Assembly: GCF_004010195.1 (NCBI RefSeq)
Contig: NC_057719.1
Span: 44,041,323 to 44,061,322 of the forward strand
DNA length: 20,000 nucleotides
From: Chiloscyllium plagiosum
Lineage: Eukaryota
Direction of reading: 5' to 3'
A program made the translations under genes and the position numbers. This document shows, piece by piece, positions 1,877 to 20,000 of the stretch. Under the pieces are notes generated by a model. It did no database searches, had not been told where the DNA came from, and saw only the letters and a list, made by a program, of their open reading frames with translations. Numbering within the stretch: position 1 is the first letter of the stretch; every line of letters starts with the position of its first letter.

Positions 1877-3864
1877 TGTCGTCTTGACAGACAACTTCAC
1901 AATTCATAGCATGGTCACCTGCCTGGTTGTGTAACTGTGTCAATTACCAATAAAAAACATGGCAGGACAATACAATGGAGGCATGGTCAGGGCATGCCAA
2001 AATGGCACCAGGTAAATACTCAGTTAGCAAGGGTGGACAGTCTAGTCCATGTCATATGATGGGTTCCCTGTACCTAATGCAGCTGGTCACTGCTGTGTGT
2101 CAGTGCTCTCCGACACCCATCCAGTCTTGCAGTGCATGGTGCTAATGTATTAGTCAAAGCCATGATGGTGGCAAAGAATCCCTGAAAGTGCAGTGCCAAT
2201 GTCCATAGAGGAAGGGTACATGTGGCTGTTGCTAGTGGATTGTGGCCTGGTCTGTGGGTAGGTGGAGGTCCTTTAGAGCAACCCATTAGTTGATCCCGTC
2301 AAGAACTCACTCTGATTTCCAAGGCAAGTTTTCCTGACTAGTTTATATGGTGAGCTTGGTAAGATTGCAGCACAAGGTAAGTTAGGCTGTTTAATATACA
2401 ACATGAGCATCAACTGAGAACTTGCCACTGACAATCGAGAATCTAGTAATGCTTTATGTGGTGAGATTATCTTGACATTGAGATCAGCCCCGCTGGGCAA
2501 CTTGCCTGATTCTATCATTTATCATTACCCATACTGCTCAGAGCCTGATGAGATCTTGCTTAATATAATTAAACTGAAATCCTAATTTCTGAAGATTTGA
2601 TTTAAAGCTTGCAACCATATTGTTGCAAAGTGTGTATAGTATTAAAACTGAGCTACTGCATAGAAGTATAAAATTGTCTAAGCAAGTTTGAAATTGTCAG
2701 ACAACTTTACAGACAGATGACATAGCCAGACTGCTGAGTAAAAAGTGTGAAACCATGACTAGCCAGGTAACTTTAGACAAGTCAGACATAATACATTAAA
2801 TAGAGAATAATATGAAGCACAGCAGAATATGACAGTCTCATCATATGTCAACCACTGTTAAAAGTTCAACCTCAGCAGCTCTAAATTTAAAAATAAATTA
2901 CTTAAAATCAAGAAGAATAAATTAAAACTGGATTTTTTTTAGACAGCACATTTCCAGCAATCCAAGCATATGACTTATACACCAGTGTGATTAATCAAAC
3001 TAGCTGTATAAAAAACTGTTGAGAGGCATACACTTTCCCCCATTTTAGAAAAAGTAATTACATGTTCAATGACAGGGCATTTTGGTTTTCATTGATCAAT
3101 ACATCTTCAGCCCCTTTGTCCAGTAATGAATCAAATTATCTTTCAAAATATATAAACATACTTCTGCACACTGTAGTCACAGAACATGCTTTGCTACCAT
3201 TAAGGAAGCTAGAATACCACCACCAAGAATCTCTGCTGCTTCCAGTACTGTGTTAATTACATACTGTGTAAACACTAAGGATTTGAAAGGTTTCCCTCTG
3301 AGTTACCTTGAATAATTCTGGACTGCGTGCGACATGACCGTAAGCTGAATGAATTCATCAACCATAAGTAATTTTATGTATGCTTGGCGCTCTCCTTTTT
3401 CAATTTGTGCCTACACACAATTTGTGGTTGAATAATCAGAGATTTGTTCCCATCTTTGTTTTTGCTCAGTGGCTTGCCTTTGATGGAAAGCAAACTCCAA
3501 TTAGCTCACAGTTGCTTCCAATTGTTCAATAAGAAGTAGAAAGATGGCCAAGGAATCAAAGCAGCTTTATTTCTTCTGAGGCATTGAGTAAATATGCAGG
3601 TCTTCTCAAGCAGTGAATATCAATATTTCATTTAACAAATCTCCAGGGCTTCTGTGCAACGCGCAACTCATTTTGTTTGTGATAAATTCGTTTCACAGCT
3701 TCACTCGTGTTATTGTAAAGAATGCTCTCACTACCTGTAAGACCCAGTGTGATGGTCACTTCACTATGAGTTCTCAGAATGTTCAATAGAATACTACTGA
3801 TCACATATGATCTCAACATGGAAAATGCCTCACATGATTAGCAGAATGCATGAATATGTATATG

Positions 3865-5949: not shown

Positions 5950-6320
5950 ACATGACATTTTCATTTACAATGAATGAATTCAATCATGACAGTATTATGT
6001 GTTAAAAAATCTTTGATAAAGAGGTTAATTGTGAACAAACATTGTGAAACTGATAGCAGGTATCAGACAACCAAAGCTTTGAATCAATGGATGGCTCAGA
6101 TGTTTCAACATTCAGTGAACAATAATAAGATTTGACTGAGAGCCAAAACAAATATTAGAGGGCTGAAACATCTGAGCCCCTGTTTAATTGACAGCTCTTA
6201 CTGTCTGATATCTGTAGCCTTGTACCTGCATTTTGCTGTTCATTGATCTTTTAATCTCAAGTTTGTTTCTTCAGGTCCCAGTAATTTCATTGACGATGAC
6301 TGAAATTTCATTTTTTTAAT
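5950..6320. repeat. Large degenerate inverted repeat (MITE-like or ancient palindromic element)
   Basis: GGCTCAGATGTTTCA (6093-6107) is perfectly inverted at 6164-6178; TATCAGACA (6061-6069) is inverted at 6202-6210 about the same axis; weaker symmetry extends outward. Outer limits are approximate. Confidence 0.65.
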
Positions 6321-6339: not shown

Positions 6340-7620
6340 GATGACACTGAGACATTTATTCTGGCATCCAGTTTAAACACCATGCTCTTCCCATTCACTT
6401 CCTGTTTAACAATACAGTAACTAATCCCAATACTGAGGGGATTTCTCATGAAATAGTTTTATTCCTGTTATGTGTTGTTTCAACTTAAATCTGTTCTAGC
6501 TTCATAGGCTTTGTTTGTTCACTGTATTCTGTTTTGGAATTCTGTAGACTTATCTAAAATATCTCAAATTCCTATCATTGTGGCATTGTGCTACCCCTCC
6601 TGGTCAATTGTCCAATTTGCATGGTTTATTCCCTTCACAAAGATGAAGGTTGTTGTGCATTTCCTGGGCTTGGTGGGCTATGTTTTCTATCCACTTTTTG
6701 TCTTGCAGCCCATGTACTGAATTGGCTCACTTGCTTTCTTCCGTGACCCTTCAGTTTCTCCTTAGACAAACACCTGATTCAGCTTCCAGTTCTGCCTACT
6801 CATCTGTACTGAAATTTCCTGCTTCAAATCCTCCCTAGCTTGTCAAAGGTATGACAATGCCTCATCGGAAACTCCAGCCATGATTCAATCATGAATTAGT
6901 TCTGCCTTCAGCACCTTGGAAATGCAGTTTTCTGTTGACCTGTAGGTCATTTGTGAATGAATCCATGCTTTTCTCAGCCCTTCATTTTTTCCAATTAAAT
7001 TATTAAATTTTTCCACATGTTGATGTATGCATTAAATGCCTTCAGTATTTCTTCATACAATATATTAAATGCATTAACATCCTATCTTGCAACTACATTG
7101 CTATAATGGCCCCTGCTGCATACAATAATGTTTTGACCTGGTCTATTTGCCCTTCATTTGTCTAAGCATGAAGCTATTCTGCATCTTGTAAATCTTTTCT
7201 TCCAAATCTCCCATTCCTGAATTTGGTGCAGTGTGCCTGAAATGGCACAGGGATTAGCCAGACAGGTTCAATAGAGGCATTTAAAAAAGGACTGGAATGG
7301 ATTTTTGGATAGTTCTGGTGTGCAGGGTTCTGGGAAAAGCAGGAGATTGGCACTAGATAAAAGAGCCAGAGTAGATAATAGAGCCAGTGCAGGCATGATT
7401 GGCCAAATAGCCTTCTTTTGCACCGTAATAATTGTGTGATTCACTGAATTGAGCTCTGGAGCTGCTCCTTCAACTACAGTGGAGCTTGTCCAGTTGTCCG
7501 CTAATTCAGTTGATTCTTACTGCTGAATGGTTTTTGGCTCCATTTTGCAGTCTACTGCTGTCTGGTGATGAGCGCCTGGTGAGACCTAAAATTTTTTTTT
7601 CTCCATCTTGACGACATATT
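6340..7620 (-). mobile_element. Gypsy LTR retrotransposon gag-protease relic, interrupted by a CR1 fragment
   Basis: Minus-strand translation in the expected order: QEWEIWKKRFTRCRIASCLDK, DQVKTLLYAAGA, LKAELIHD*IMAGVSDEALS, a decayed zinc knuckle (AQCHNDRNLRYFR) and a decayed protease motif FKLDARINVSV (cf. FKLDTGADVSV). Confidence 0.8.
7240..7442 (+). mobile_element. CR1-type LINE 3' end nested in the Gypsy gag
   Basis: GSIEAFKK remnant, then a 3' UTR AGCCAGTGCAGGCATGATTGGCCAAATAGCCTTCTTTTGCACCGTAATAATTGTGTGATTC. Confidence 0.7.
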
Positions 7621-7947
7621 TCACTTCAATAGTTACATTTGACGCCACTGCTTTTTGCTGCCTTTCCTGTTTCCACCATTTTCGATCATGTGTGTATGGT
7701 CCAAATTACTTTAATCTTCCAAATTCTGCTTTTTGAGTCCAAGGTACTTTCCTTTAAGCTGTTCCGTTACAACTTGGTATATACACACATTCTCTTCGAT
7801 CGCTCTACACAATCATCTGAGACAGACATAATCAATGCATCATTCTACATTATCACCTTTATACATTCTGCTGGTGTCTCGTTACTCTAAATCAGTAGCT
7901 TTATTAAAGCTGAGAGTTATTGAGCCAGTCAGAGTGTAAAGATTCAA

Positions 7948-8166
7948 CACAGGTAGAAAGTGAGGACTGCAGATGCTGGAGATCAGAGCTGAAAAATGTG
8001 TTGCTGGAAATGCGCAGCAGGTCAGGCAGCATCCAAGGAGCAGGAGAAGCGACGTTTCGGGCATAAGCCCGATTCCTGAAGAAGGGCTTGTGCCTGAAAC
8101 GTCGAATCTCCTGCTCCTTGGATGCTGCCTAACCTGCTGCGCTTTTCCAGCAACACATTTTTCAGC
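7948..8166. mobile_element. Penelope-like element (PLE)-derived palindromic insertion
   Basis: 83-bp inverted arms 7988-8070 and 8084-8166 (6 mismatches), flanked by direct repeat AAAGATTCAA at 7938-7947 and 8167-8176; related to 17262-17717 and 19801-19945. Confidence 0.8.
8071..8108 (+). ncRNA. Minimal type-I hammerhead ribozyme motif
   Basis: GATTC-CTGAAGA-A-GGGC-TTGT-GCCT-GAAA-CG-TC-GAATC: stem I GATTC/GAATC, core CUGANGA and GAAA, palindromic ACGU stem III, GUC cleavage triplet. Confidence 0.7.
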
Positions 8167-8258
8167 AAAGATTCAAGACACTCAATAAAAGATAACCTAC
8201 TTGGCAATGTGTAACCTGTGTGTAGCAGTTGTTACCACAGTTAAAATGACTGAATAGA

Positions 8259-8345
8259 CAACCACCTGTTGAAGGAGCAGCACTCCGAAAGCTAGTGCTT
8301 TCCAATAATCCCGTTGGACTATAACCTGGCATTGTGTGATTTTTA
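8259..8345 (+). mobile_element. Short PLE-derived insertion (second family) with a degenerate hammerhead motif
   Basis: CAC-CTGTTGA-A-GGAGC-AGC-ACTCC-GAAA-GC-TA-GTG at 8263-8297; flanked by direct repeat ACTGAATAGA at 8249-8258 and 8346-8355. Confidence 0.7.
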
Positions 8346-8799
8346 ACTGAATAGATAAAATGTCACAACCGCAGACATGTGCATATAATCAGAGGAGCTG
8401 CTCCTTCAATGCAGAAAGTTGATGGGAAAGATTGGATTTTTGCCAGCTGAACAAGGAAATGAATGATCATTAGTCTCAAAGGTCAAATATTTTCTACCAA
8501 ATGCAGTCGATCAGCAGTAACAGTTACCACAGCAGCAACATTCACCACCATTATATTTCACAGTGAGGCAACATCACCCCAGGACACCAGATGACAACTC
8601 GCATGTGTACAGTTAGAAAACCAGAATGCTTTACATTTGTGTGTGCAATAAATATGCAGGAACAGATGGAAATAGGACAGTCTAGAATGGGCAAGCAGTT
8701 TTACTGTTCATGTGAGATGATTTTCTTAAGAGGCCATATATGTGAGTAACTTGCAAATCACAGTGCAAACATTTTTAATTTTTTTAAATTAGCACTGAT

Positions 8800-8923
8800 T
8801 TTCAGAAGAGTCATATTGGACTTGAGATGGTTGTTCTATTTCTCTCTCCACAGCTACTGCCAGATCTGCTGAATTTCTCCAGAATGTTGCTTTATTTCAG
8901 ATTCCCAGCATCTGCAGTATTTT
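8800..8923 (+). mobile_element. Older PLE-derived repeat with a decayed hammerhead
   Basis: GAAGAGTCATATTGGACTTGAG...CCAGCATCTGCAGT; clearly related to 15695-15790, and its 3' end is complementary to the ACTGCAGATGCTGG start of the palindromic family. Confidence 0.65.
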
Positions 8924-8949
8924 AATTTTATTTCAATAAAGTCATGATT

Positions 8950-9460
8950 TGGATAATCTTAACATAATTTGTTGAAAAACACAAAGCAAGTCCATATTGG
9001 AGGGAAAAAGCTGCAAATAGCGACGAGGGGTGGAGATAAAGTGCAAACAGTCCAAAATAAATACAGCAAAAAATTGGAAACACATAGTAATTTGCCAGAA
9101 AAACAAATGAACAGTGGCAAAAGTAGATGGAGAGTTTGCAACGTGGATATACCATGGAGATACCTAACCTTAAAATGTGGAAAGGAGACTTAAAACAGGT
9201 TATCTTAAAATATATGATTATATATTCAAAGATAAAGAATCAGAAATAAATGGAAAAAGGATGGGGTTCTAAAATTCTTCAAGATTAGCAAAATTCCCAT
9301 TTTTATTTTCAAGAATTATATTTACTGGGCAACTTGGAAATATTACTGTAACAATACTCAGATCAAAAAGGTCAATGCAGCCTCCATGAAAAATGATACA
9401 GGCATTAGGACCATTTCAATTGTGAAATTGGACAACTTTTGGGTGACATAAGCATATCAA
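8950..9460 (+). mobile_element. Highly decayed CR1-like LINE relic
   Basis: A-rich plus strand with weak CR1 C-terminal remnants (FSRII..., KLDNF). Confidence 0.35.
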
Positions 9461-9544
9461 AATCTAGTCAAATAAAATACCGGGAAAAGAAAACTGCTAT
9501 AACCTAATTGATTAATTATTGTCAACTTTGTTGGATGTTTGTTT

Positions 9545-9790
9545 AACACCATGATTTGAACTTATAACTATCAAGGTTAACTATCAAGTGTGGATCTTAT
9601 GGAATACTGCATTGTTAGGATGCTGTCCTTTGGAGGATGTGTTAATATCCAAGCTTTAATCTTTATTTTCAGTGAGACTGAAAAAGATCCTGTGGCACTG
9701 TTTAAAGAAAACCAAGAGGCTTTGGCCAACTTATTCACTGTTCAACAAACAGAATGACCATGTGGAAAGTCAACAGCTCATTTGGCACAC
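9545..9790 (+). mobile_element. DeuSINE (SacSINE1/AmnSINE1-like) Deu-domain relic
   Basis: ATACTGCATTGTTAGGATGCTGTCCTTTGG...AAAAGATCCTGTGGCACTGTTTAAAGAA...TGGCCAAC resembles the conserved Deu domain. Confidence 0.6.
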
Positions 9791-10499
9791 CACATTATTT
9801 TCCTTTCCATTTACTTTGTTGTTGATTTAGTATTGTTGTTTTGTCCTAACATCCAAGTCAATTTCATATTCCAACAGAATTTAAGATTATTTTGCTCAAC
9901 TTGATTATATTTTTAGTATATTGTCTCACCTATTCACTTTAGTCAGACAGACTCAGAACTTTAATTTGATTTCCGAGGACATAGGATTATCTCGTTAAAA
10001 TAAAAGCAGGGCATATACTTTGTAGAGCCAGCCAGGAGAACTCTATACACATGAAGGCATTCATGATGGGACTCAAATAAATATACTATATGCTCAATGA
10101 CAAAATGGATGTAGTTACATGAGGGGGTTTCTGTTCAGCCACCACACTGATTTCATATTTCAGCATTACTATGAAAGCACATTTTCTGCTAGCTGCCTGT
10201 GCAACTTACACGCAAATTGGGAGGTGAAGAGCTCCTGGGAAATAAATAGCTAAACCGGTGGGACCTGAGGAAGAATAAAATGAGGTTGCATGACACAAAT
10301 AACCTCTATGCAGACAGTGTAAAGTGGTGTCTGTGTAAATTGCACATGTCACTGCACATCATAGCAACTAATTGCTTAAACAACTCCTGTTGCTAATTGT
10401 TCAAACAACTCATTCTGCAACAGTCAAGTACTCAAATTTCACCCAAGTAAGTGGAACTTCCAGCTGTCATTTGTCTATTTTAGACACAACCTATTAATG

Positions 10500-10740
10500 T
10501 AACCTTATTTCTTTCCTTGGTCTCTTAAGAATGTCTGCTAAAACATACATTTGGATAAAAAGGTTTGGTTTCAAGCTCATTTTCCAATGTAAATCACTCC
10601 ATGTGTATCTATCTATGCTTTGTTAAAATTCTACATTTGCCTGTACTGTCTAATGCGAAGCTTTGAAAGATTTTCCCCTTCTCTGTTTTAAATTCCTATG
10701 TGCACTTTTGTACTGGATTTTGCCAATATAAACTTGTCAC
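10500..10740 (+). mobile_element. Possible decayed L2 LINE 3' end
   Basis: CTAAAACATACATTTGGATAAAAAGG (LKTY...) followed by an L2-tail-like stretch; weak. Confidence 0.3.
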
Positions 10741-11681
10741 AAGTATTGCACTGTAAGGTGGCTTTGCAGGTGCTTTTTTATCCCCAGCAGAGTACCAACA
10801 CGTAAATATTTTACCCTTTGATACCCACAACCTACATTAATTTTCTCCAAATTTTAGGCTCTTGCTGTCCTTCAGCATCTGAATTCCACTTGTTCAAAAA
10901 TTTAAAATACAAGCTGTGGTTCTCTCAACTTTCTTTATGCCATCTTCATCCACCATGGGCCTCCAAACTTTGTCCTTATGAAATGAAATACACCTTGCCT
11001 CCAGGCTCCCCACCTAGCTGTTGTCAAGACTTTCCCACCCAACTCATGCAGCTGCTTCTCATGTCCGTTATATCTGTGACCCTGTTCCAAAAGCAGCTAT
11101 TGTTTTAAATATCCCACTATCCCTAACAGTTGCTTTAATTCAATGCAGATTGTTTACACTGAAATTTATTCAGTATTTTTCTTTGCTGCTGTGATGCTAA
11201 GACATACTCATGATCTTGCTACTCTCTTCAGTTACTAGGCTGGAATCTTTCCGGGCCCAGTGGTTGTATCTAATCTGATTAAAGGTGTATCTGCTGAGGT
11301 GAAGCCTGTCTGTACTTGGTTAAGAAAGAATGCCTACATCCCCAAAGATGTAGGCTAGCATCACACTCACTTTCAACAATTTGAAAAGTTTAGAATAATT
11401 TTTAATATCTTAAATTTTGACACAGTTATTTGATTTTCTGAAAGAAAGTGACATATACATACATACATACATTTACAGAGAGAGTGGAAATGAGAAAGGA
11501 AATCAAACTGAATAAAAATTTACACTAAGATGTTAAAAACAGAACTCTAATTTAGCTGGCTGCCCTCCCCAGCCAGATGAGGCACATTTCCAATCGTGGA
11601 CAAAATCCCAAAACTAATTTCTGTTTTTCACCCCTGCTAAATAACATAATACATGCTTTGCAGTTGGGACTACATAAACAT

Positions 11682-12018
11682 GGATGCAGGTTTCCTCGCT
11701 GAGCTGGAAGGTTCGTTTTCAGACGTTTCATCACCAAATTAGGTAAGATCTTCAGTGAGCCTCCAGACGAAGCATTGCTGATGATTTCTGCTTTCTATTT
11801 ATATGTTTGGGTTTCTTTGGGTCGGTGATATCATTTCCTGTAGTTATGTCATTTCCTGTGGTGATGTCTTTTCTGGTTCTTTTTCTCAGGGGGTGGTAAA
11901 TCGGATCTAAGTCAATGTGTTTGTCAAATAGAAAGTCTGAAAATGAACCTTCCAGCTTAGCGAGCGAACCTACATCCAGAACCTCAACCTGAGCTATAAA
12001 TCTTCTCAAAACTCGCTA
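11682..12018 (-). mobile_element. Penelope-like retroelement 3' fragment with inverted pseudo-LTR segment
   Basis: Minus-strand peptide DKHIDLDPIYHPLRKRT resembles the end of a PLE GIY-YIG ORF. 11681-11725 is inverted at ~11936-11979. Internal 18-bp tandem (DITTGN, 2-3 copies). Direct repeat ACTA(C/T)ATAAACAT at 11669-11681 and 12019-12031. Confidence 0.8.
11719..11758 (-). ncRNA. Minimal type-I hammerhead ribozyme motif
   Basis: Minus strand TCA-CTGAAGA-T-CTTACC-TAATTT-GGTGAT-GAAA-CG-TC-TGA: intact core, stem I TCA/TGA, stem II with a mismatched basal pair. Confidence 0.65.
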
Positions 12019-12208
12019 ACTATATAAACATTTCTACTTGGTCTAATATCTCCTATCCTCTAATTCCACTTTGGGTGAAGAACACACTTGAACTCATACG
12101 GAATTCAACTAATTAGAAATCAAAACCTAGAAATTCACACAGACCCAAAAACAGGATTCATTAGAATGTCCTCAAAAACAGCTAAGAATACAAATAATTT
12201 CAACCCAC

Positions 12209-12375
12209 CTCAATATCATGCCCAGAAGGAGCATTTTCAAGTTGTGTATCATCAGCTAAAGGTTCTGTCACTCTGACCTCCATAAACTCTTCCACCGAAT
12301 CCTGAAATTCTGGTGCTGTTCTCCGCCCATATCGTTTCCCATCTTTGACATATTTTGGCTGTACCTCGGTAGAAT
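12209..12375 (-). CDS. NIN: Internal coding exon of ninein (centrosomal microtubule-anchoring protein), N-terminal region after the first EF-hand pair
   Basis: Acceptor ttttatgcccacag, donor GAG|gtgggt; 167 bp, phase 1 to phase 0. Peptide (D)STEVQPKYVKDGKRYGRRTAPEFQDSVEEFMEVRVTEPLADDTQLENAPSGHDIE matches recalled human NIN DCSLEAQPKYVRGGKRYGRRSLPEFQESVEEFPEVTVIEPLDEE. Confidence 0.92.
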
Positions 12376-12572
12376 CTGTGGGCATAAAATGCATTGCAAT
12401 CAGCCTAATCATTTTAAATTGCATACACAATATCTTTAGAGGCTTTCAACTAACTCATCAGGCTTATCTAATAAACTTCTGAGTCCTAGTTCCAATGTCC
12501 TGCCTGTGCTGACTTTATTAATGATAATCAGTCTGACCATATGACTGCTACAATAGACCACAGTGTTTAGCA

Positions 12573-12644
12573 TCCAAGTAGTGTGGTGTTTAGTATCTCT
12601 GTCTGTCACAAGGGGAGACTGGGGTTCAATTCTCTGCTGGGGAG
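12573..12644 (+). pseudogene. tRNA-Asp(GTC) pseudogene or tRNA-Asp-derived SINE head
   Basis: TCCAAGTAGTGTGGTGTTTAGTATCTCTGTCTGTCACAAGGGGAGACTGGGGTTCAATTCTCTGCTGGGGAG aligns end to end with vertebrate tRNA-Asp; anticodon GTC at 12605-12607; stems disrupted; TTTT at 12654-12657. Confidence 0.75.
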
Positions 12645-12657
12645 TAGTTAACATTTT

Positions 12658-12778
12658 GGGTCCTCCTGTGACGCAGTAGTAGTATCCCTACCCTTGCACT
12701 GAGATATCTGGGTTCAACTCCCATCTGCTCCAGGAGGTGTACAATAATAACTCTGAACAGATTGATTAGAAAAAAAAT
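12658..12778 (+). mobile_element. Short tRNA-derived SINE with A-tail
   Basis: A-box-like TGACGCAGTAG, B-box GGTTCAACTCC, ends GATTAGAAAAAAAA. Confidence 0.7.
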
Positions 12779-12904
12779 GGGTAGACCACAGGGTCACTCA
12801 TGATTGCTATGCAACGTCTCCTAATATAAGTGCATGTGTAAACTTTGGTTTAATGCAAAACCTGATTAATCTGAGTTCAGAAGGATTTCAGGTTTTGGAT
12901 TAGC

Positions 12905-13370
12905 ATCAACACGTTTTTATATAGTCTCTTCAAAGTAATAAGTTGTTGCAGCATGCTTCACTGGAGCACTATAAAAAAAGCTTGATACCAAGCCACATTT
13001 GGAAATATTAGGTCAGATAACCAAACACTTGGTCTGACTGGTATGTTTTAAGAAACATTTTAGAATATGAAAGCAAGATTTAAGGGTTTAAGGAGAGAAT
13101 TCCAGTGTTTAAGGCCTTGACAGCTGATGGGACAGCTGCCAATTGTTCAGCAATTAAAACTGGCAATGCTCACAGGGCGAGAATTGGAGGAATGCATATA
13201 CCCCAGAAGATTGTGGGGCTGGAGGAGATTAGAGAGATAGGGAGGAGCGAGATCATTAAGTGGTTTGAAAACAAGGGTGAGAGTTGTAAAATCAAAGTGT
13301 TGATCAAACAGAAACCTGTGTAGTTCAGTGAGCACAAAGGTGATAGGTGATCCTGCCAGATTAGCCTGAA
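12905..13370 (-). mobile_element. L2 LINE 3' fragment
   Basis: Minus-strand SPITFVLTELHRFLFDQHFDFTTLTLVFKPLNDLAPPYLSNLLQ...MHSS matches the L2 ORF2 pattern HITPVLxxLHWLP..RIDFK..LVFKxLxGLAPxYL..LRSS; L2-like tail near 12905-12960. Confidence 0.8.
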
Positions 13371-13407
13371 GTCTGGCAAGGAAGATAACCTGAAAATGTG
13401 GAGACAT

Positions 13408-14960
13408 GGGGCTGAATTCAATTGCGTCACACAGGAATCTGGCAAAGTGTAAAGAAATCCAGAAGTACAGAATATCTGTCAATGATTTTTTTTTAACGTA
13501 GCTTTTGTGTTATGATATATTTTCTGCACTTTGTAGCCAATTTAAAGGAACATTCCAAGCATACAATTAACTGATAGTGGAGTTGGGTGGCACAACAGAA
13601 GGAATGGGCAGAATTAGAGACGCTGAGATGTTCAAAAGGCTATGCCTTGTTTTAGTGATATCACTCAGGGTGTGCTGTTGCACTCTGTTAGAGCCATCAG
13701 GAAAATATTCTTTCCTATAAATAGAGGGAACAAGCCTGTAGGTGAAGTAAGAAGGCATGGTTGGAGATTGGCCATAACGTTAGCAGCAACAGGAGCTGAA
13801 GCATAATATTAAAATTGTGGTTTTAATGATTGCTGCAGGGCAGGGAAGGTTAACATTGTTCCTGACTAACCCATCTTCTTAAATGTGCATAACCCAACAG
13901 CCTTCACTCTGCCTTTTTACGCCTACTCCAGCACATTACTCCTCAACCAATGTAGCTTACAGGTATACCCATCCATCTGTGTCAATACATGTTTTCCATG
14001 CCCATCTGTTCATTTACCTTGATACTCAATTTCATCCTTACAGTAATTAGAGTTTAAATGATTTCAAGTTATTTGGTACTGCATCCAATAGTTCAACCAC
14101 AATTATTCTTCTTTCTAAAGGATCCTCACCCTTATACGATGCCATGTCTCTACTTTGTAGTCACCTTCAAAAAGTCATCTCCATCTATTCATTCAATATA
14201 TAGCACAGGACACGAAGGAGAGGTAGAGAACTGGTGGTGACCCTACATTGTGTGGAAGTTGTATGGTGTATGAGCAGACGTGCAGAAGCTAAAAAGATTC
14301 CATGAATACCCTATCAGTCTCCACTGTATAACTACCACTCTCATTTAAATATACGGTTCAGACTTCTCAAAATCTGCATAGGCACCAACGAAAATTAGAG
14401 TGATCATTGCCCTTGAGTCACCTCTCAACTGATATCTGTAGAGGAATCTTGGCACTGCCTGACCATTGGTGATGGGGAGGTGTGTGTCTCACAGCTACCT
14501 ACTGGCAAAATATCACCTCACGTACAATGTTCACTCATGTTGATTTGATGTTGGCAACCAGTGAACAATGATCACATCAAGGATCCAGTAGGAGATGCCA
14601 GGAGGATATTAATTACTTCTCAGAGGAAGTCACTCACTCATGCATCAACTCAGATACTTACATTTTGGTGGGACCAGTGGGAAGATGGTTGTGTTTTTAC
14701 ACAGTGAGCAGCAGTACAGCATAGAGACATGAACAACAGTGGAGATTTTAGTTGGGAGACTACAGGGATGCTTAATGTGCATGCAGTAACTTAGGGCCAT
14801 TAATTAAAAAGGTACTTTGAGAGCAGTAGCAAGGATATACTGGCATGCTTTCCATCTATGCTTGCAAAGAGATGACAGACTTGATGTTGAAGTCTCTTGT
14901 GATGACATCTGAATCCATGCAAAGGAAAGTTACTGGTATAGTTCCTCACACACAGTAATC
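13408..14960 (+). mobile_element. PIF/Harbinger DNA transposon relic: decayed Myb/SANT-like gene
   Basis: 13645-13848 reads PCFSDITQGVLLHSVRAIRKIFFP..AWLEIGHNVSS..FNDCCRAGK|gt; 14203-14244 reads AQDTKER*RTGGDP. This is the RFS..L..V..W..IA..V..FND..RTGGGP signature of Harbinger Myb/SANT proteins. Boundaries approximate. Confidence 0.6.
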
Positions 14961-15667
14961 AAATGGGCTTATGCAGTCTTCAGCAATGATTTGTGTCTCA
15001 TGATATAAACGCCCCGAAAAGCAAGATAAATGATACCCTTAATCGGTTTTCACCCCACAATATTCCCCAGCAGATTGCTCGCAAGGAAGTGTGATAGGCC
15101 ATTAGATAGTTGGTGGTGAAGGGGATTCGGAAGTGGGGACCCCATACAAGTGCATCCATTTTTCACCCATTCTCCTTTATCCCATGCAGTATTCCACAAG
15201 TTACTTTGTATCCCAATGGTGATGATATCTCCTGTACAGCACAGCTGGAGCGATTTTGCCAGACTTTCATGAGCTTCAAAACCGAGAAGAACATTGGCCA
15301 AGTGTGTCTTGACAGTCAGAGCAAGGATCTGCATATACTTCCACTGAAGACACAAGAGTTCTACTCTTGAAGCACAGAAGCATTAGGAAAATGAAGAATA
15401 AAGATTACCGGATACATAAGGATATTTTTCACATGTTTAGATTGGCAGGTTCTATTTTAAATTAAATAAATATTATTCCCACTACTTTCCCACTTTACTT
15501 ATTTGTGGCTGCTGTCTAGCAAGTGGCATTTTCACTTGTGATAAATGTTCAGACATGAACTGACGCTGAGCAATGGGAGAAGAGGGGATGTGACAATGCT
15601 GATTGGCCTTTTATAGTATTGCTTTATGTTAGTGCCACTGCCAGAGAGAAGTAGCTTTTGCACACAA

Positions 15668-15795
15668 TGGCAAAATATTGTGGATGCTGAAAATCTGAAG
15701 AGGAGTCATATTGGACTTGAAGCAGTAACTCTGTTTTTCTCTCCATAGATGATGCCAGACCTAATGAGTTTCTCCAGTGTTCTCTGAGTTATTTG
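15668..15795 (+). mobile_element. Older PLE-derived repeat with a decayed hammerhead
   Basis: CTGAAGA-G-GAGTC-ATATTG-GACTT-GAAG at 15695-15722, preceded by a short inverted end piece; same family as 8800-8923. Confidence 0.65.
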
Positions 15796-17261
15796 TTGGA
15801 TGAGTGCACTAGCTGAGCACTACTGAACATTCCAATAAAAAGTATACTGGGTATCAAAGAGAGACACTGCTGCAAGTTGGCCGCATCACATTCTGTTACT
15901 TCCTCAAAACTGTCTGCAAAGAGACTCTAAGCTGCACACAAAGTTGAGGCTTTGACATATAAGTTCAGCACATCATGATCATTATGAAAAATGATACTGG
16001 GCCTCAGGTGCCCCAAGCAAGGAGGGCTTTTCTGGAGAATCAAAGACAGAAGGGTTTTCGAATGAGAGAAATTCCTGGAGCACTGTAGCAATCTGGTCAG
16101 TCAAGGAGGAGTTCATGTGGCACATGTTGTCCCTTTATAACTCTGGGCTTTGAGCTCATGTGCTCGTTCATTGAGACAGTAGTCAACTTGTTGGCAATTC
16201 ATAAGTAGCACCATTCTGAGAGGACATAGGAGCAGCACACTGACATCCGAGGAAAGGTTGGAATCTAATGCCCTCCTTTATGGCAGGTTTGGTGGCAGGT
16301 GGGGACCTCACCAACTTCTCATACCTGCCGCGAATAAGTCTGGGACAGGAAGGCCCAGACAATCCAACACCAACTACAATTGAGCCCTTAATTGGACAAT
16401 TAATGCACATCACAAGGCAGCATCTGTTGCCGTTGGTATTTACACAGTGGCTGGTGGGGGACTTACTATGGGGAAACCTGAAAACCCAACCTTGTCAGGT
16501 GACTTGCAAATTCACAAGAAGTTTCCTCATTCAAAGGCATTCAGTTTGTGATCAGGGACTTGGCATCAGGAAGAGGGGTAGCCTGGTGAGAGATTGCTCT
16601 TATTGGCATCCCCTCTCTCAACCTACAATCCCTTGTTTCATTACTCAGCTGTGCCTGAATCCTGTGGTCATGTTGGACATGGTTGTATTAGCACCGGCCA
16701 CTGCGCCCCATCCCATGATAAAACCCTATGACAGAAGTATTGATGCAGGAACAGTAACACCACATCGACACAGGCCCTGGGCATGTCAGATAGCTGCAGA
16801 TACAAGGCAGCAAGCTGCCAAGAACTCACTGATAGCCATAAGAGGAGTACCCCAAAAGTAGGTGTAAACATAAAGCAATACGTAAATGAACTGCATGGGT
16901 CATCTGGATGATGTTTGCTCATTTTGTCTGTTCAATTACTTTTCATGCAATCCTACCTCCTTATGTTCTCAACTGAACTTGTTGGTTAATAACACTGATA
17001 TCAAAAAGATTGGTACAATGAACTCTCTCAGAATGCTATGTCATCTTTATTGGAGGCCTGGTTTTTCATGTAAATGAAAAACATTGCTGCAAACAAAAAT
17101 CAATGAATTGTATACTTCTCATGAAACACAAGAACAGTACAATCTGTTCAGGAAAGAGGAAGCCTTACAAGAAACACTCATTGCAGTGGATATAATAGAG
17201 CACTTGTGAGTGTAATCTATTTATCATAATGACTTAATCACTGTTGTCCTTTATCTATCAG

Positions 17262-17717
17262 GCAAACGTGAGGACTGCAGATGCTGGAAATCAGAGTTTA
17301 GACCAGAGTGGTGCTGGAAAAGTAGAGCAGGTCAGGCAGCATCCGAGGAGCAGGAAAATCGACATTTCGGGCAAAAGCCCTTCATCAGGAATAGAAACAG
17401 GAAGCCTCCTGGGTAGAGAGATAAATGGGGGGGGTGGGGAGTGCTGGGGAGAAGGTAGCAAAGAGTACAATAGGTGAATGGGGGTGGGGATGGAGGTGAT
17501 AGGTCAAAGGGGAGGGTGGAGCGGATAGGTGGGAAGGGAGATTGGTAGGTTTACTTATCACCTCCATCCCCACCCCCATTCACCTATTGTACCCTTTGCT
17601 ACCTTCGCCTCAGCCCTCCCCTCTCCCCATTTATCTCTCCATCCTGGAGGCTTCCTGCCTCTATTCCTGATGAAGGGCTTTTGCCAAAACATCGATTTTC
17701 CTGCTCCTCGGATGCTG
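17262..17717. mobile_element. PLE-derived palindromic insertion with two opposed hammerhead motifs
   Basis: Inverted arms ~17334-17501 and ~17556-17720; 14-bp direct repeat CCTTTATCTATCAG at 17248-17261 and 17718-17731. Confidence 0.85.
17357..17392 (-). ncRNA. Minimal type-I hammerhead ribozyme motif
   Basis: Minus strand ATTC-CTGATGA-A-GGGC-TTTT-GCCC-GAAA-TG-TC-GATT: canonical CUGAUGA/GAAA core, perfect stem II, weak stem I. Confidence 0.7.
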
Positions 17718-17842
17718 CCTTTATCTATCAGTCAGCATTAAAAAATTCACATGATGCTGTTAACGAGTGTGACAATTCAATAGTGAAATGCATCTCTTAG
17801 TTCAAACTAGTTATGAAGTTTAACATGAAATAGGGGAAAACC

Positions 17843-18079
17843 ATGACCTGCAAGTTCCCCTCCAAGCCACTGACCATGCTGACTTGGAAATCTATCACTG
17901 TTCTTTCAGTGTCACTGGGTCAAATCCTGGAACTCCCTCCCTAATTGTGGACCTACAAAACATGGGAAGTAGTGGGTCTTGACGGCAGCTCACCAAGCAC
18001 TTCTTAAAGGCAACTAGGATTGGGCAATAAAACGTTGACCCAGCCAGCAGCACCCACCTCCCATGAGTATATAAAAAAA
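17843..18079 (+). mobile_element. CR1/L2-superfamily LINE 3' end
   Basis: SFSVTGS..SWNSLP-type remnant, then GGGCAATAAA and an A-rich tail. Confidence 0.7.
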
Positions 18080-18089
18080 TTTGTTTCCA

Positions 18090-19795
18090 TTCAGGAGACC
18101 ATGAGTTCTACCAGTATAATTCTCATCTCAGATCATTAACAATGTTCACTGAGCAAAATTACAATCTCAATTTCCTGTTGTGTCCACATACCTATGAAGT
18201 TCTTCTAGATTATCATATTCTTCCTGAAACAGGATAATTGATTTTGTTTTGATGATTGATTTGGAAACCTGTTTCATAAGAAATCTGTACCATTGTTTAT
18301 CATGTTGTGTGACCTTTCTGTATTACTGCACACTCTAAGGTAGATTTGCTGCCACCATTCTCCTTCAATGTAGGGATCTACAGAACGTACTTGGTTCAAT
18401 GTGGTAGAGGAAATCCACTTGGCAGCCTCATGATATAAGGTTCTTTTTAGAGTCATAGAGATGTACAGCATGGAAACAGACTCATCGGTCCAACCCGTCC
18501 ATGCCGACCAGATATCCCAACCCAATCTAGTCCCACCTGCCAGCACCCGGCCCATAACCCTCCAAACCCTTCCTATTCATATACCCATCCAAATGCCTCT
18601 TAAATGTTGCAATTGTACCAGTCTCCACCACTTCCTCTGGCAGCTCGTTCCATATTCGTACCACTCTCTGTGTGAAAACGTTGCCCCTTAGGTCTCTTTA
18701 ATACCTTTCCCCTCTCACCCTAAACCTATGCCCTCTAGTTCTGGACTTCCCCACCCCAGGGAAAAGGCTTTGCCTATNNNNCCCAACTCCTGTACTCAAT
18801 ACTCTGACCAATAAAGGAAAGCATACCAAACGCATTCTTCACTATCGTATCTACCTGCGACTCCACTTTCAAGGAGCTATGAACCTGCACTTCCAGGTCT
18901 CTTTGTTCAGCAACACTCCCTAGGACTTTACCATTAAGTGTATAAGTCCTGCTAAGATTTGCTTTCCCAAAATGCAGCACCTCGGATTTATCTTAGTTAA
19001 ACTCCATCTGCCACTTCTCAGCCCATTGGCCCATCTGGTCAAGATCCTGTTGTAATCTACACAAGATGTAATTTATTGTACGACAGCAAAGATGTACAAG
19101 TTACAAAGATGTGATAAACAATGTTACAGAAACGATGAGGAACATCCTAAAGTGTTCTCCCATCCAGTCTATATTATATCATCATAGTGGAAGGTGCTTA
19201 AAGCAATTTTCAGCAATAACCCTTCTGGATCTTTATACAACTCCTCCTGCCTAGCTTTTTTCACAACATTTACATTTATACATTTGTTTATATAATTCCT
19301 TTTGCTACTCTGCCAATTCCCAGCAAGTTCCCAATGCCACAGATTCAGGTGATCCAGAGGATTTTTGCATTATCTTCTGACCTGGAAAATTTACGTGTTA
19401 CAGTGTTGAAGCTTGTTGACATTGATTCAATTTCTGATTCTGTAAGGTCTGCAAGTCCCTTTAAACTGGAGGACTTTTAATTTCATATTTCCCTTATAGA
19501 AGCCCTGATGATATTGGCAGTTTTGAGTTTTTCAGTATCTATCTTCTTGACTGTATCCTGAATCTTTGGGCCTTGACCATTCTTTCTCAGTTGTAGCTTT
19601 TATAGAATTGGACAAATCATCTCTTCAATTTAAATGGGCAGACTCTTATAATCAATCTGCTGGTAAATCTGTGCTGAAGTGTGTAGACTCATAACCTCAA
19701 CTTGTTGCTTAACTTAGATGCTTTCATTTGCTCTCGGTGACTATAGTACTGGTGAACAAAAATACTTACTTCCTCAGTCACAGGTCTCTGGATAA
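18090..19795 (-). mobile_element. Highly decayed RTE-clade LINE relic interrupted by a younger CR1
   Basis: Minus-strand KLQLRKNG...KKIDTEKLK (post-endonuclease linker), QEELYK, and beyond the CR1 ENGGS...KSIIKTK (post-RT region), in the expected order; many stops. Confidence 0.4.
18447..19058 (-). mobile_element. Young CR1/HER1 LINE, 5'-truncated, containing an assembly gap (NNNN, 18778-18781)
   Basis: VLHFGKANLSRTYTLNGKVLGSVAEQRDLEVQVHSSLKVESQVD...IEYRSW is CR1 ORF2; 3' UTR ends in a CTCTATGACTCTAA tail. Confidence 0.92.
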
Positions 19796-19800
19796 ATCTT

Positions 19801-19945
19801 GGGCATAAGCCCTTCTTCAGGAATGAGGAAAGTTTGTCCAGCAGGCTAAGATAAAAGGTAGGGAGGAGGGACTTGGGGGAGGGGCGTCGGAAATGTGATA
19901 GGTGGAAAGAGGTCAAGGTGAGGGTGATAGGTCAGACTGGAGTGG
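19801..19945 (-). mobile_element. PLE-derived fragment with a truncated hammerhead
   Basis: Minus strand ATTCCTGAAGAAGGGCTTATGCCC, cut off before GAAA; purine-rich body similar to 17390-17550. Confidence 0.7.
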
Positions 19946-20000
19946 GAGGGACACACACACACACAGCGAGGGAGGGACACACACACACAGCGTGGGAGGG
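19944..20000. repeat. Minisatellite GGGAGGG(AC)nAGCG(A/T), unit ~24-26 bp, running off the window
   Basis: Two full units plus the start of a third. Confidence 0.75.

Follow-up and report, generated by a model that had tools for sequence, protein, structure and literature searches.

A 20-kb stretch of the Chiloscyllium plagiosum genome (positions 44041323-44061322 of contig NC_057719.1; hereafter the window, meaning this whole stretch) contains eight hammerhead ribozyme motifs, intact or decayed, in introns of the gene for ninein. We consider it very likely that these motifs are minimal type I hammerheads from the terminal repeats of at least four families of Penelope-like elements (PLE), and that they reached the ninein introns as 5′-truncated insertions flanked by target-site duplications, probably made by the elements' own reverse transcriptase (RT) and endonuclease and probably inert to the host. 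A first-pass annotation had reported eight motifs with four stem II types, a single extra nucleotide after the core and a 2-nt stem III, and had attributed them to several PLE families. All eight are present at or adjoining the reported places, the anatomy described is real, and endonuclease sequence is found upstream of the hammerhead in all four families.

Hammerhead families and their link to Penelope-like elements

The 3.56-Gb genome was searched with exact patterns for the four families, none of which demands stem I, with reversed patterns as controls. Together the four patterns have 114,649 copies and the reversed patterns none. Family A (stem II GGGC/GCCC) accounts for 87,591 copies, family B (GGAG/CTCC) for 21,864, family D (TTACC/GGTRA) for 5,060 and family C, in its strict form, for 134; the older family C subfamily found in the window has 156 copies genome-wide when CpG decay is permitted. 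These counts bear out both the expectation of very many copies in the genome and the argument that stems varying around a fixed core mark a real motif, and the four stem II types are genuine families. In a regional sample of 1,346,199 bases, mostly intronic, 277 element ends cover the core and 77 of them are intact, which extrapolates to roughly 700,000 core-covering and 200,000 intact copies in the genome if this mostly intronic sample is typical.

The anatomy of the motif recurs well beyond what was demanded of it. When the core and a 4-bp stem II were the sole requirements placed on the regional sample, 119 matches were obtained, compared with 16-19 in three Markov controls. Exactly one extra base precedes stem II in 111 of the 119, positions 15.2-16.2 are palindromic in 59, and the palindrome is combined with the cut triplet in 58, against 0-1 in the Markov controls; 49 of these 58 also carry the G10.1-C11.1 pair. 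Stem III is a palindromic A-N-N'-U. Stem I is weak in most family A copies, where it contains a U.U mismatch, and 10,544 family A copies genome-wide have a fully paired 4-bp stem I. CpG positions within the core have decayed by 14-23%, as expected of unselected copies. A comparison of core with tail conservation was discarded as evidence of host selection, being biased by the choice of core-covering copies and by subfamily differences; with that bias, the values for the core, the tail and the best-kept tail half were 1.9%, 15.3% and 4.3% in family A, 5.2%, 11.7% and 4.2% in B, and 3.3%, 25% and 8.2% in D.

The tie to PLE is most direct in families A and D. A family A locus (L148) has a frame with an RVT_1 match (E 2e-8), the motif YIDD, a CX4CXXC linker (CNRKKCKTC) and an endonuclease part, with the hammerhead 160 nt downstream of this RT/endonuclease frame; another family A piece (L110) matches GIY-YIG at E 1.4e-4, 0.1 bit below the cut-off. 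The RT open reading frame (ORF) returned nothing from the PDB. Two family D loci (L178, L180) have ORFs in which RT and endonuclease motifs were read by eye and which have no cysteine linker; the reading frame continues across the hammerhead core to a stop within the motif, such that core and protein code overlap. In families B and C, endonuclease fragments were read by motif upstream of the hammerhead (L059, L051 and L085). The association is directional: among 272 core-covering copies (143 A, 37 B, 52 C and 40 D), 24, 3, 3 and 29 copies of A, B, C and D, respectively, have a same-strand endonuclease of their own family no more than 1 kb upstream, compared with a single copy out of 272 when the same distance is searched downstream as a control. 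Families B and C may be of the Neptune type, by likeness of motifs. According to the available text of Craig 2021 (PMC8557442), a CX2-5CXXC cysteine linker is a mark of Neptune or Nematis and is absent in Poseidon. Judged by the presence or absence of this linker, which Nematis shares, family A would be Neptune-type and family D Poseidon-type.

Assembly gaps often fall midway in long head-to-head PLE insertions (L141-L144, L150 and the window from 20000 onward), so that the assembly likely under-represents longer copies and full-length elements. In family B the endonuclease stop is separated from the hammerhead by a long CA-rich stretch, which is often an assembly gap (L051, L057, L059).

Insertion layout, route and rival explanations

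Window copies were classed with profiles built from natural copies. By this classing the motif with its core at 8076(+) alone is complete, those at 17388(-) and 11755(-) have intact cores, and the remaining five are broken or cut short (Table 1). A strict type I descriptor has its only zero-mismatch match in the window at 8076; allowing one mismatch gives three matches, at 8076, at 8266 and a chance-like one at 2589. Forty Markov shuffles gave no zero-mismatch match and a mean of 0.325 with one mismatch. A search against Rfam up to E 10 found no hammerhead match in the window; its miRNA matches are palindromic arms, every one under the gathering score, and were rejected.

The eight motifs belong to seven insertions, four of them head-to-head. 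The motifs at 17388(-) and 17667(+) are two arms of a single insertion with a common target-site duplication. Duplications of 13-17 nt flank five of the seven insertions, four of them with one mismatch each; none was found at either of the two old family C copies (8791-8918 and 15692-15786). The first-pass annotation had stressed the density of motifs. Measured against 65 tiles of 20 kb, the window does lie above the mean, with 10 element ends versus 6.1 (range 1-12; at least 10 in 6 of the 65 tiles) and 7 core-covering ends versus 4.0 (at least 7 in 7 tiles), yet the excess is mild: at less than twice the background the window falls in the upper tenth, and such density is the normal state for this genome.

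Layout was further examined in the 272 core-covering copies, for which partners were sought within 4 kb. An inverted partner lies upstream of 147, compared with 50 in the downstream control, and 80 have no partner. Same-strand partners, which a tandem arrangement would produce, are at background level (45 upstream versus 52 in the downstream control); a same-strand copy of the same family is found within 1 kb in 28 cases, and the window has no tandem hammerhead units. Copy lengths form a continuum that exceeds 1 kb and reaches into the endonuclease, with a pile-up of 5′ ends at most 12 nt upstream of the core in A (87 of 143) and B (19 of 37). We do not rely on the corresponding family C figure (48 of 52 short), whose references came from a younger subfamily. 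Only 5 of 344 ends of families A, B and D start within 3 nt of the cut site, which argues that the template RNA was uncut, as for the lizard PLE discussed below. The suggestion of retrozyme-like insertions therefore finds no support, given the level of tandems, the rarity of ends at the cut site and the extension of copies upstream into PLE endonuclease; the copies are 5′-truncated PLE ends, often head-to-head with target-site duplications, and not retrozymes.

The following route would account for these insertions. Target-primed reverse transcription would begin in the tail 3′ of the hammerhead, on uncut PLE RNA, and would pass through the motif, ending in most cases no more than about 12 nt past the core; such an end could mean that the polymerase stalled at the fold or that the RNA itself starts there. 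The inverted arm would come from a second priming. Selection would keep the core in source elements, where the motif would cut just when dimeric or aided by PLE protein; single intronic copies would leave the ninein pre-mRNA uncut and decay. We regard it as quite probable that the insertion route, conservation of the core in source elements and passivity of lone intronic copies hold jointly.

Several results weigh against this reading. The ties of families B and C to PLE would stand on endonuclease fragments read by motif, and in Pfam the endonuclease pieces of L085 (family C) and L098 (family D) were unmatched. No locus among 24 long ones, many of them broken by gaps, combines an uninterrupted ORF with both terminal repeats in a full-length element, and the longest ORF in the long loci has 590 amino acids. 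The RNA data come from one single-cell poly(A) run, of which about 2% was read, and are ill-suited to reveal cut ends: 1547 reads on the family A end include both strands and show no pile-up of read ends, an observation in favor of this reading but a weak test in a poly(A) library. The remaining two points, the shortness of many copies and the strand behavior of stem I, are the ones on which rival explanations draw.

Many A and B copies are so short that a self-propagating mini-element may exist. Hammerhead-headed units of 100-130 nt would then be a non-autonomous family of their own, SINE-like (short interspersed element) or retrozyme-like, transcribed from a start of their own and mobilized in trans by PLE protein. 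The pile-up of A and B starts just upstream of the core fits such units, as does the report of PLE-derived retrozymes in one chondrichthyan, in the available text of Li 2026 (10.64898/2026.07.22.740005). We nonetheless judge this explanation unlikely, given the continuum of lengths into the endonuclease, tandems at control level, the scarcity of ends at the cut site and the missing pile-up in family D (4 of 40).

A further explanation is that host pre-mRNA is cut by copies whose stem I pairs well, acting as neighbor dimers or with PLE protein, and that such copies are purged from sense introns. Strands were counted over about 1.15 Mb in three genes: ninein (150 kb) and two LDL-receptor-related genes found via PF00057, in 800 kb on C7 (exon motifs 33 minus, 1 plus) and 200 kb on C2 (62 plus, 0 minus). 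Sense and antisense copies number 166 and 190 for all ends, 105 and 129 for core-covering ends, and 32 and 31 for intact cores (95% interval of the sense share 0.38-0.64). The sense-strand depletion of intact cores that had been proposed as a check is thus not seen in the three genes, and by this first count intact cores overall are tolerated in sense introns. Among intact copies with a stem I of at least 3 bp, 8 are sense and 17 antisense (p 0.11). A post hoc split into six subgroups, made after the strand counts were known, gave 1 sense versus 10 antisense for intact family A copies with a GAAT stem I (p 0.012), 23 versus 11, the opposite direction, for the sister subgroup with a GATT stem I (p 0.058) and 3 versus 6 for intact family B, the other subgroups being small. 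Also post hoc, stem I energy is weaker in sense than in antisense intact copies (p 0.026), with no strand difference in broken ones (p 0.47); this is a hint that would fit some cutting in host RNA.

The GAAT skew, the energy difference confined to intact copies and the very existence of 10,544 copies with a fully paired stem I are what speaks for host cutting. Set against them are the post hoc choice of one subgroup in six, the opposite sister subgroup, the first stem I test and the even count of all intact cores, and the restriction to three genes, one of which supplies most counts. The share of non-T reads at position 8106 is moreover higher on the likely hammerhead-sense read strand (130 of 652) than on the other (72 of 452), and such motifs have low in vitro activity according to the available text of PMC4209133. 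Host cutting thus appears improbable to us. A bolder proposition, to which we likewise give little credence, starts from about 100,000-200,000 core-intact hammerheads in the genome: host pre-mRNA would be cut by the roughly 10,000 copies whose stem I pairs fully, and these would be purged from sense introns. If true, such cutting and purging would make PLE hammerhead activity in vivo visible across a whole genome for the first time. Fortuitous matches, or ordinary hairpins of decayed repeats, can practically be dismissed as an explanation, even though five of the eight window copies are broken and Rfam is silent, since more than 114,000 exact copies against none in controls, four different stems around one core and recurring features outside the descriptor's demands refute it.

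The window and its features

The hammerhead-bearing insertions and the exon are listed in Table 1.

Table 1. Hammerhead-bearing insertions and coding exon of the window (window coordinates; TSD, target-site duplication; core start, first base of CUGANGA)
Feature	Position	Strand	Core start	Evidence	Details
Family A head-to-head mini-insertion	7952-8166	.		83-nt inverted arms, 93%	14-nt TSD, 1 mismatch, at 7938 and 8167; plus arm begins 4 nt upstream of core; inverted arm without 5′ part of core
Complete type I minimal hammerhead	8071-8108	+	8076(+)	Zero-mismatch descriptor match; profile 103 bits	5-bp stem I, CUGAAGA, extra A, stem II GGGC/GCCU, GAAA, palindromic CG; predicted cut after 8103; antisense to ninein
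Family B PLE end	8262-8345	+	8266(+, CTGTTGA)	Descriptor and profile; 13-nt TSD, 1 mismatch	Hammerhead 8263-8297(+): mutated core CTGTTGA, stem II GGAG/CTCC, palindrome AGCT
Old family C PLE end	8791-8918	+	~8795(+, insertion-broken)	Profile 25.7 bits; 77% similar to 15699-15777	Insertion breaks core; GAAA decayed
Family D (putative Poseidon-type) head-to-head insertion	11682-12018	-	11755(-)	13-nt TSD, 1 mismatch; 258 nt upstream homology	Hammerhead 11758-11719(-): core intact, first stem II pair mismatched, sense to ninein; frame 11752-12015(-) is C-terminal end of family D endonuclease ORF
Third ninein coding exon detected	12209-12388 (tblastn range)	-		Protein homology	Sole exon within window
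Old family C PLE end	15692-15786	+	15695(+)	Profile 30 bits	CUGAAGA and stem II GAGTC/GACTT retained; GAAA and stem III decayed
Family A head-to-head insertion	17265-17717	.	17388(-), 17667(+)	17-nt TSD, 1 mismatch; 332 and 360 nt upstream homology	Hammerhead 17392-17357(-): intact core, G.U in stem III, 2-bp stem I; hammerhead 17663-17698(+): mutated
Family A inverted arm, 3′-truncated, of head-to-head insertion	19800-20000	-	19820(-)	Profile; 16-nt duplication read both sides	Insertion spans assembly gap to ~1.4 kb past window; plus arm there holds core-intact hammerhead

The assignment of the motifs to introns of one gene stands, and the gene is ninein on the minus strand. A 54-amino-acid frame (12212-12373, minus strand) is 96% identical to Hemiscyllium ocellatum ninein and 94% identical to a Chiloscyllium punctatum protein. 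A tblastn search with Hemiscyllium ocellatum ninein over 220 kb around the window traced a minus-strand chain of exons that runs, in window coordinates, from +67469 to -82234, and a small exon overlooked by tblastn sits at -12655. By protein homology, the window is thus one ninein exon with parts of its two flanking introns. An exon candidate at about 7521-7586 (minus strand) was discarded, the next ninein exon lying at -12655 instead. Queries of the exon against PDB and Atlas gave nothing useful, and a Pfam search with six ORFs of the window returned only DUF6577, below its cut-off.

The window has further features outside the hammerhead families. A weak match to the CPEB3 ribozyme model, which is hepatitis delta virus (HDV)-like, lies at 13094-13149 on the plus strand (21.4 bits versus a gathering score of 35); it covers a P4-like hairpin and the following strand, is single-copy in the 1.35-Mb regional sample, and could be fortuitous or the decayed remains of an HDV-like ribozyme from an old repeat. 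At 12560-12780, short repeats of tRNA-derived look are by eye likely old SINE heads, and 12 further places in the sample match the second half of this stretch at 70-83%. The region 3390-3780 is single-copy in the sample, has no long ORF and by eye resembles a conserved non-coding element or a very old repeat. Two A-rich, coding-like and decayed regions, 8930-9560 (plus strand) and 19220-19760 (minus strand, single-copy in the sample), look by eye like remnants of old long interspersed elements; the frames tested had no Pfam match. Inverted arms of 51 nt, 75% complementary and 56 nt apart, occupy 6057-6214, match none of the four hammerhead profiles and are possibly another old palindromic insertion.

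Comparison with known systems

Earlier publications already describe the hammerhead class itself, including its occurrence in fishes and its scattering as single motifs. Statements about published systems in this section refer to the available portions of each paper's text. Cervera and de la Pena 2014 (PMC4209133) described minimal hammerhead ribozymes in the terminal repeats of metazoan PLEs, with low self-cleavage, as a dimer; dimer cleavage of such hammerheads is also summarized in PMC6765202. The shark motifs share with these the type I fold without helix III, the extra base between positions 9 and 10.1, the G10.1-C11.1 pair, the palindromic 15.2-16.2, the coexistence of several families per genome, and the predominance of single motifs from truncated elements with some close opposite-strand pairs. 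They differ in their host, no shark being named in the available text of that paper, in the weak stem I with a U.U mismatch of most family A copies, and in a stem II of 4 bp in families A and B compared with 7-8 bp for Schistosoma.

A literature search found no paper on these shark families; Repbase, Dfam and the supplements of Li 2026 and Cervera 2014 were outside its scope, and those supplements may list shark families. The available portions of PMC6155905 and PMC8455134 contain nothing on them.

As insertions, the shark copies resemble the PLE insertions of Arkhipova 2013 (PMC3846280) and Craig 2021 in their strong 5′ truncation, head-to-head inverted copy, tails and duplications. Their duplications are longer, however, at 13-17 nt versus 8-10 in rotifer PLEs. 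Unlike the Neptune and Penelope/Poseidon insertions described there, many consist of the last 100-130 nt only, and the ORF of family D ends inside the hammerhead. The lizard PLE of Frangieh 2024 (PMC11167929) likewise has a hammerhead near its 3′ end and an uncut RNA template; its hammerhead cuts only with protein and is dispensable for insertion. Non-LTR (long terminal repeat) retrozymes, defined by tandem units each with a hammerhead (Li 2026), have in common with the shark copies the type I hammerhead, the origin from PLE terminal repeats and the lack of protein in short copies, whereas here tandems are at background and the cut site does not mark the start of units.

What distinguishes the shark genome is scale. 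Its 114,649 exact copies compare with about 4,000 in coelacanth and about 9,000 in Xenopus, numbers called remarkable in PMC4209133; this is about ten times the counts reported in 2014, although the counting methods differ. Apart from their very large numbers, the families described here are accordingly ordinary members of a published class, and it is in statistics that they are of use. Both Craig 2021 and Frangieh 2024 leave it open whether RNA is cut by PLE hammerheads in cells; with more than 100,000 copies whose cores are intact, spread over subfamilies of unequal stem I strength, this shark makes cutting in the cell testable by an annotation-based strand count.

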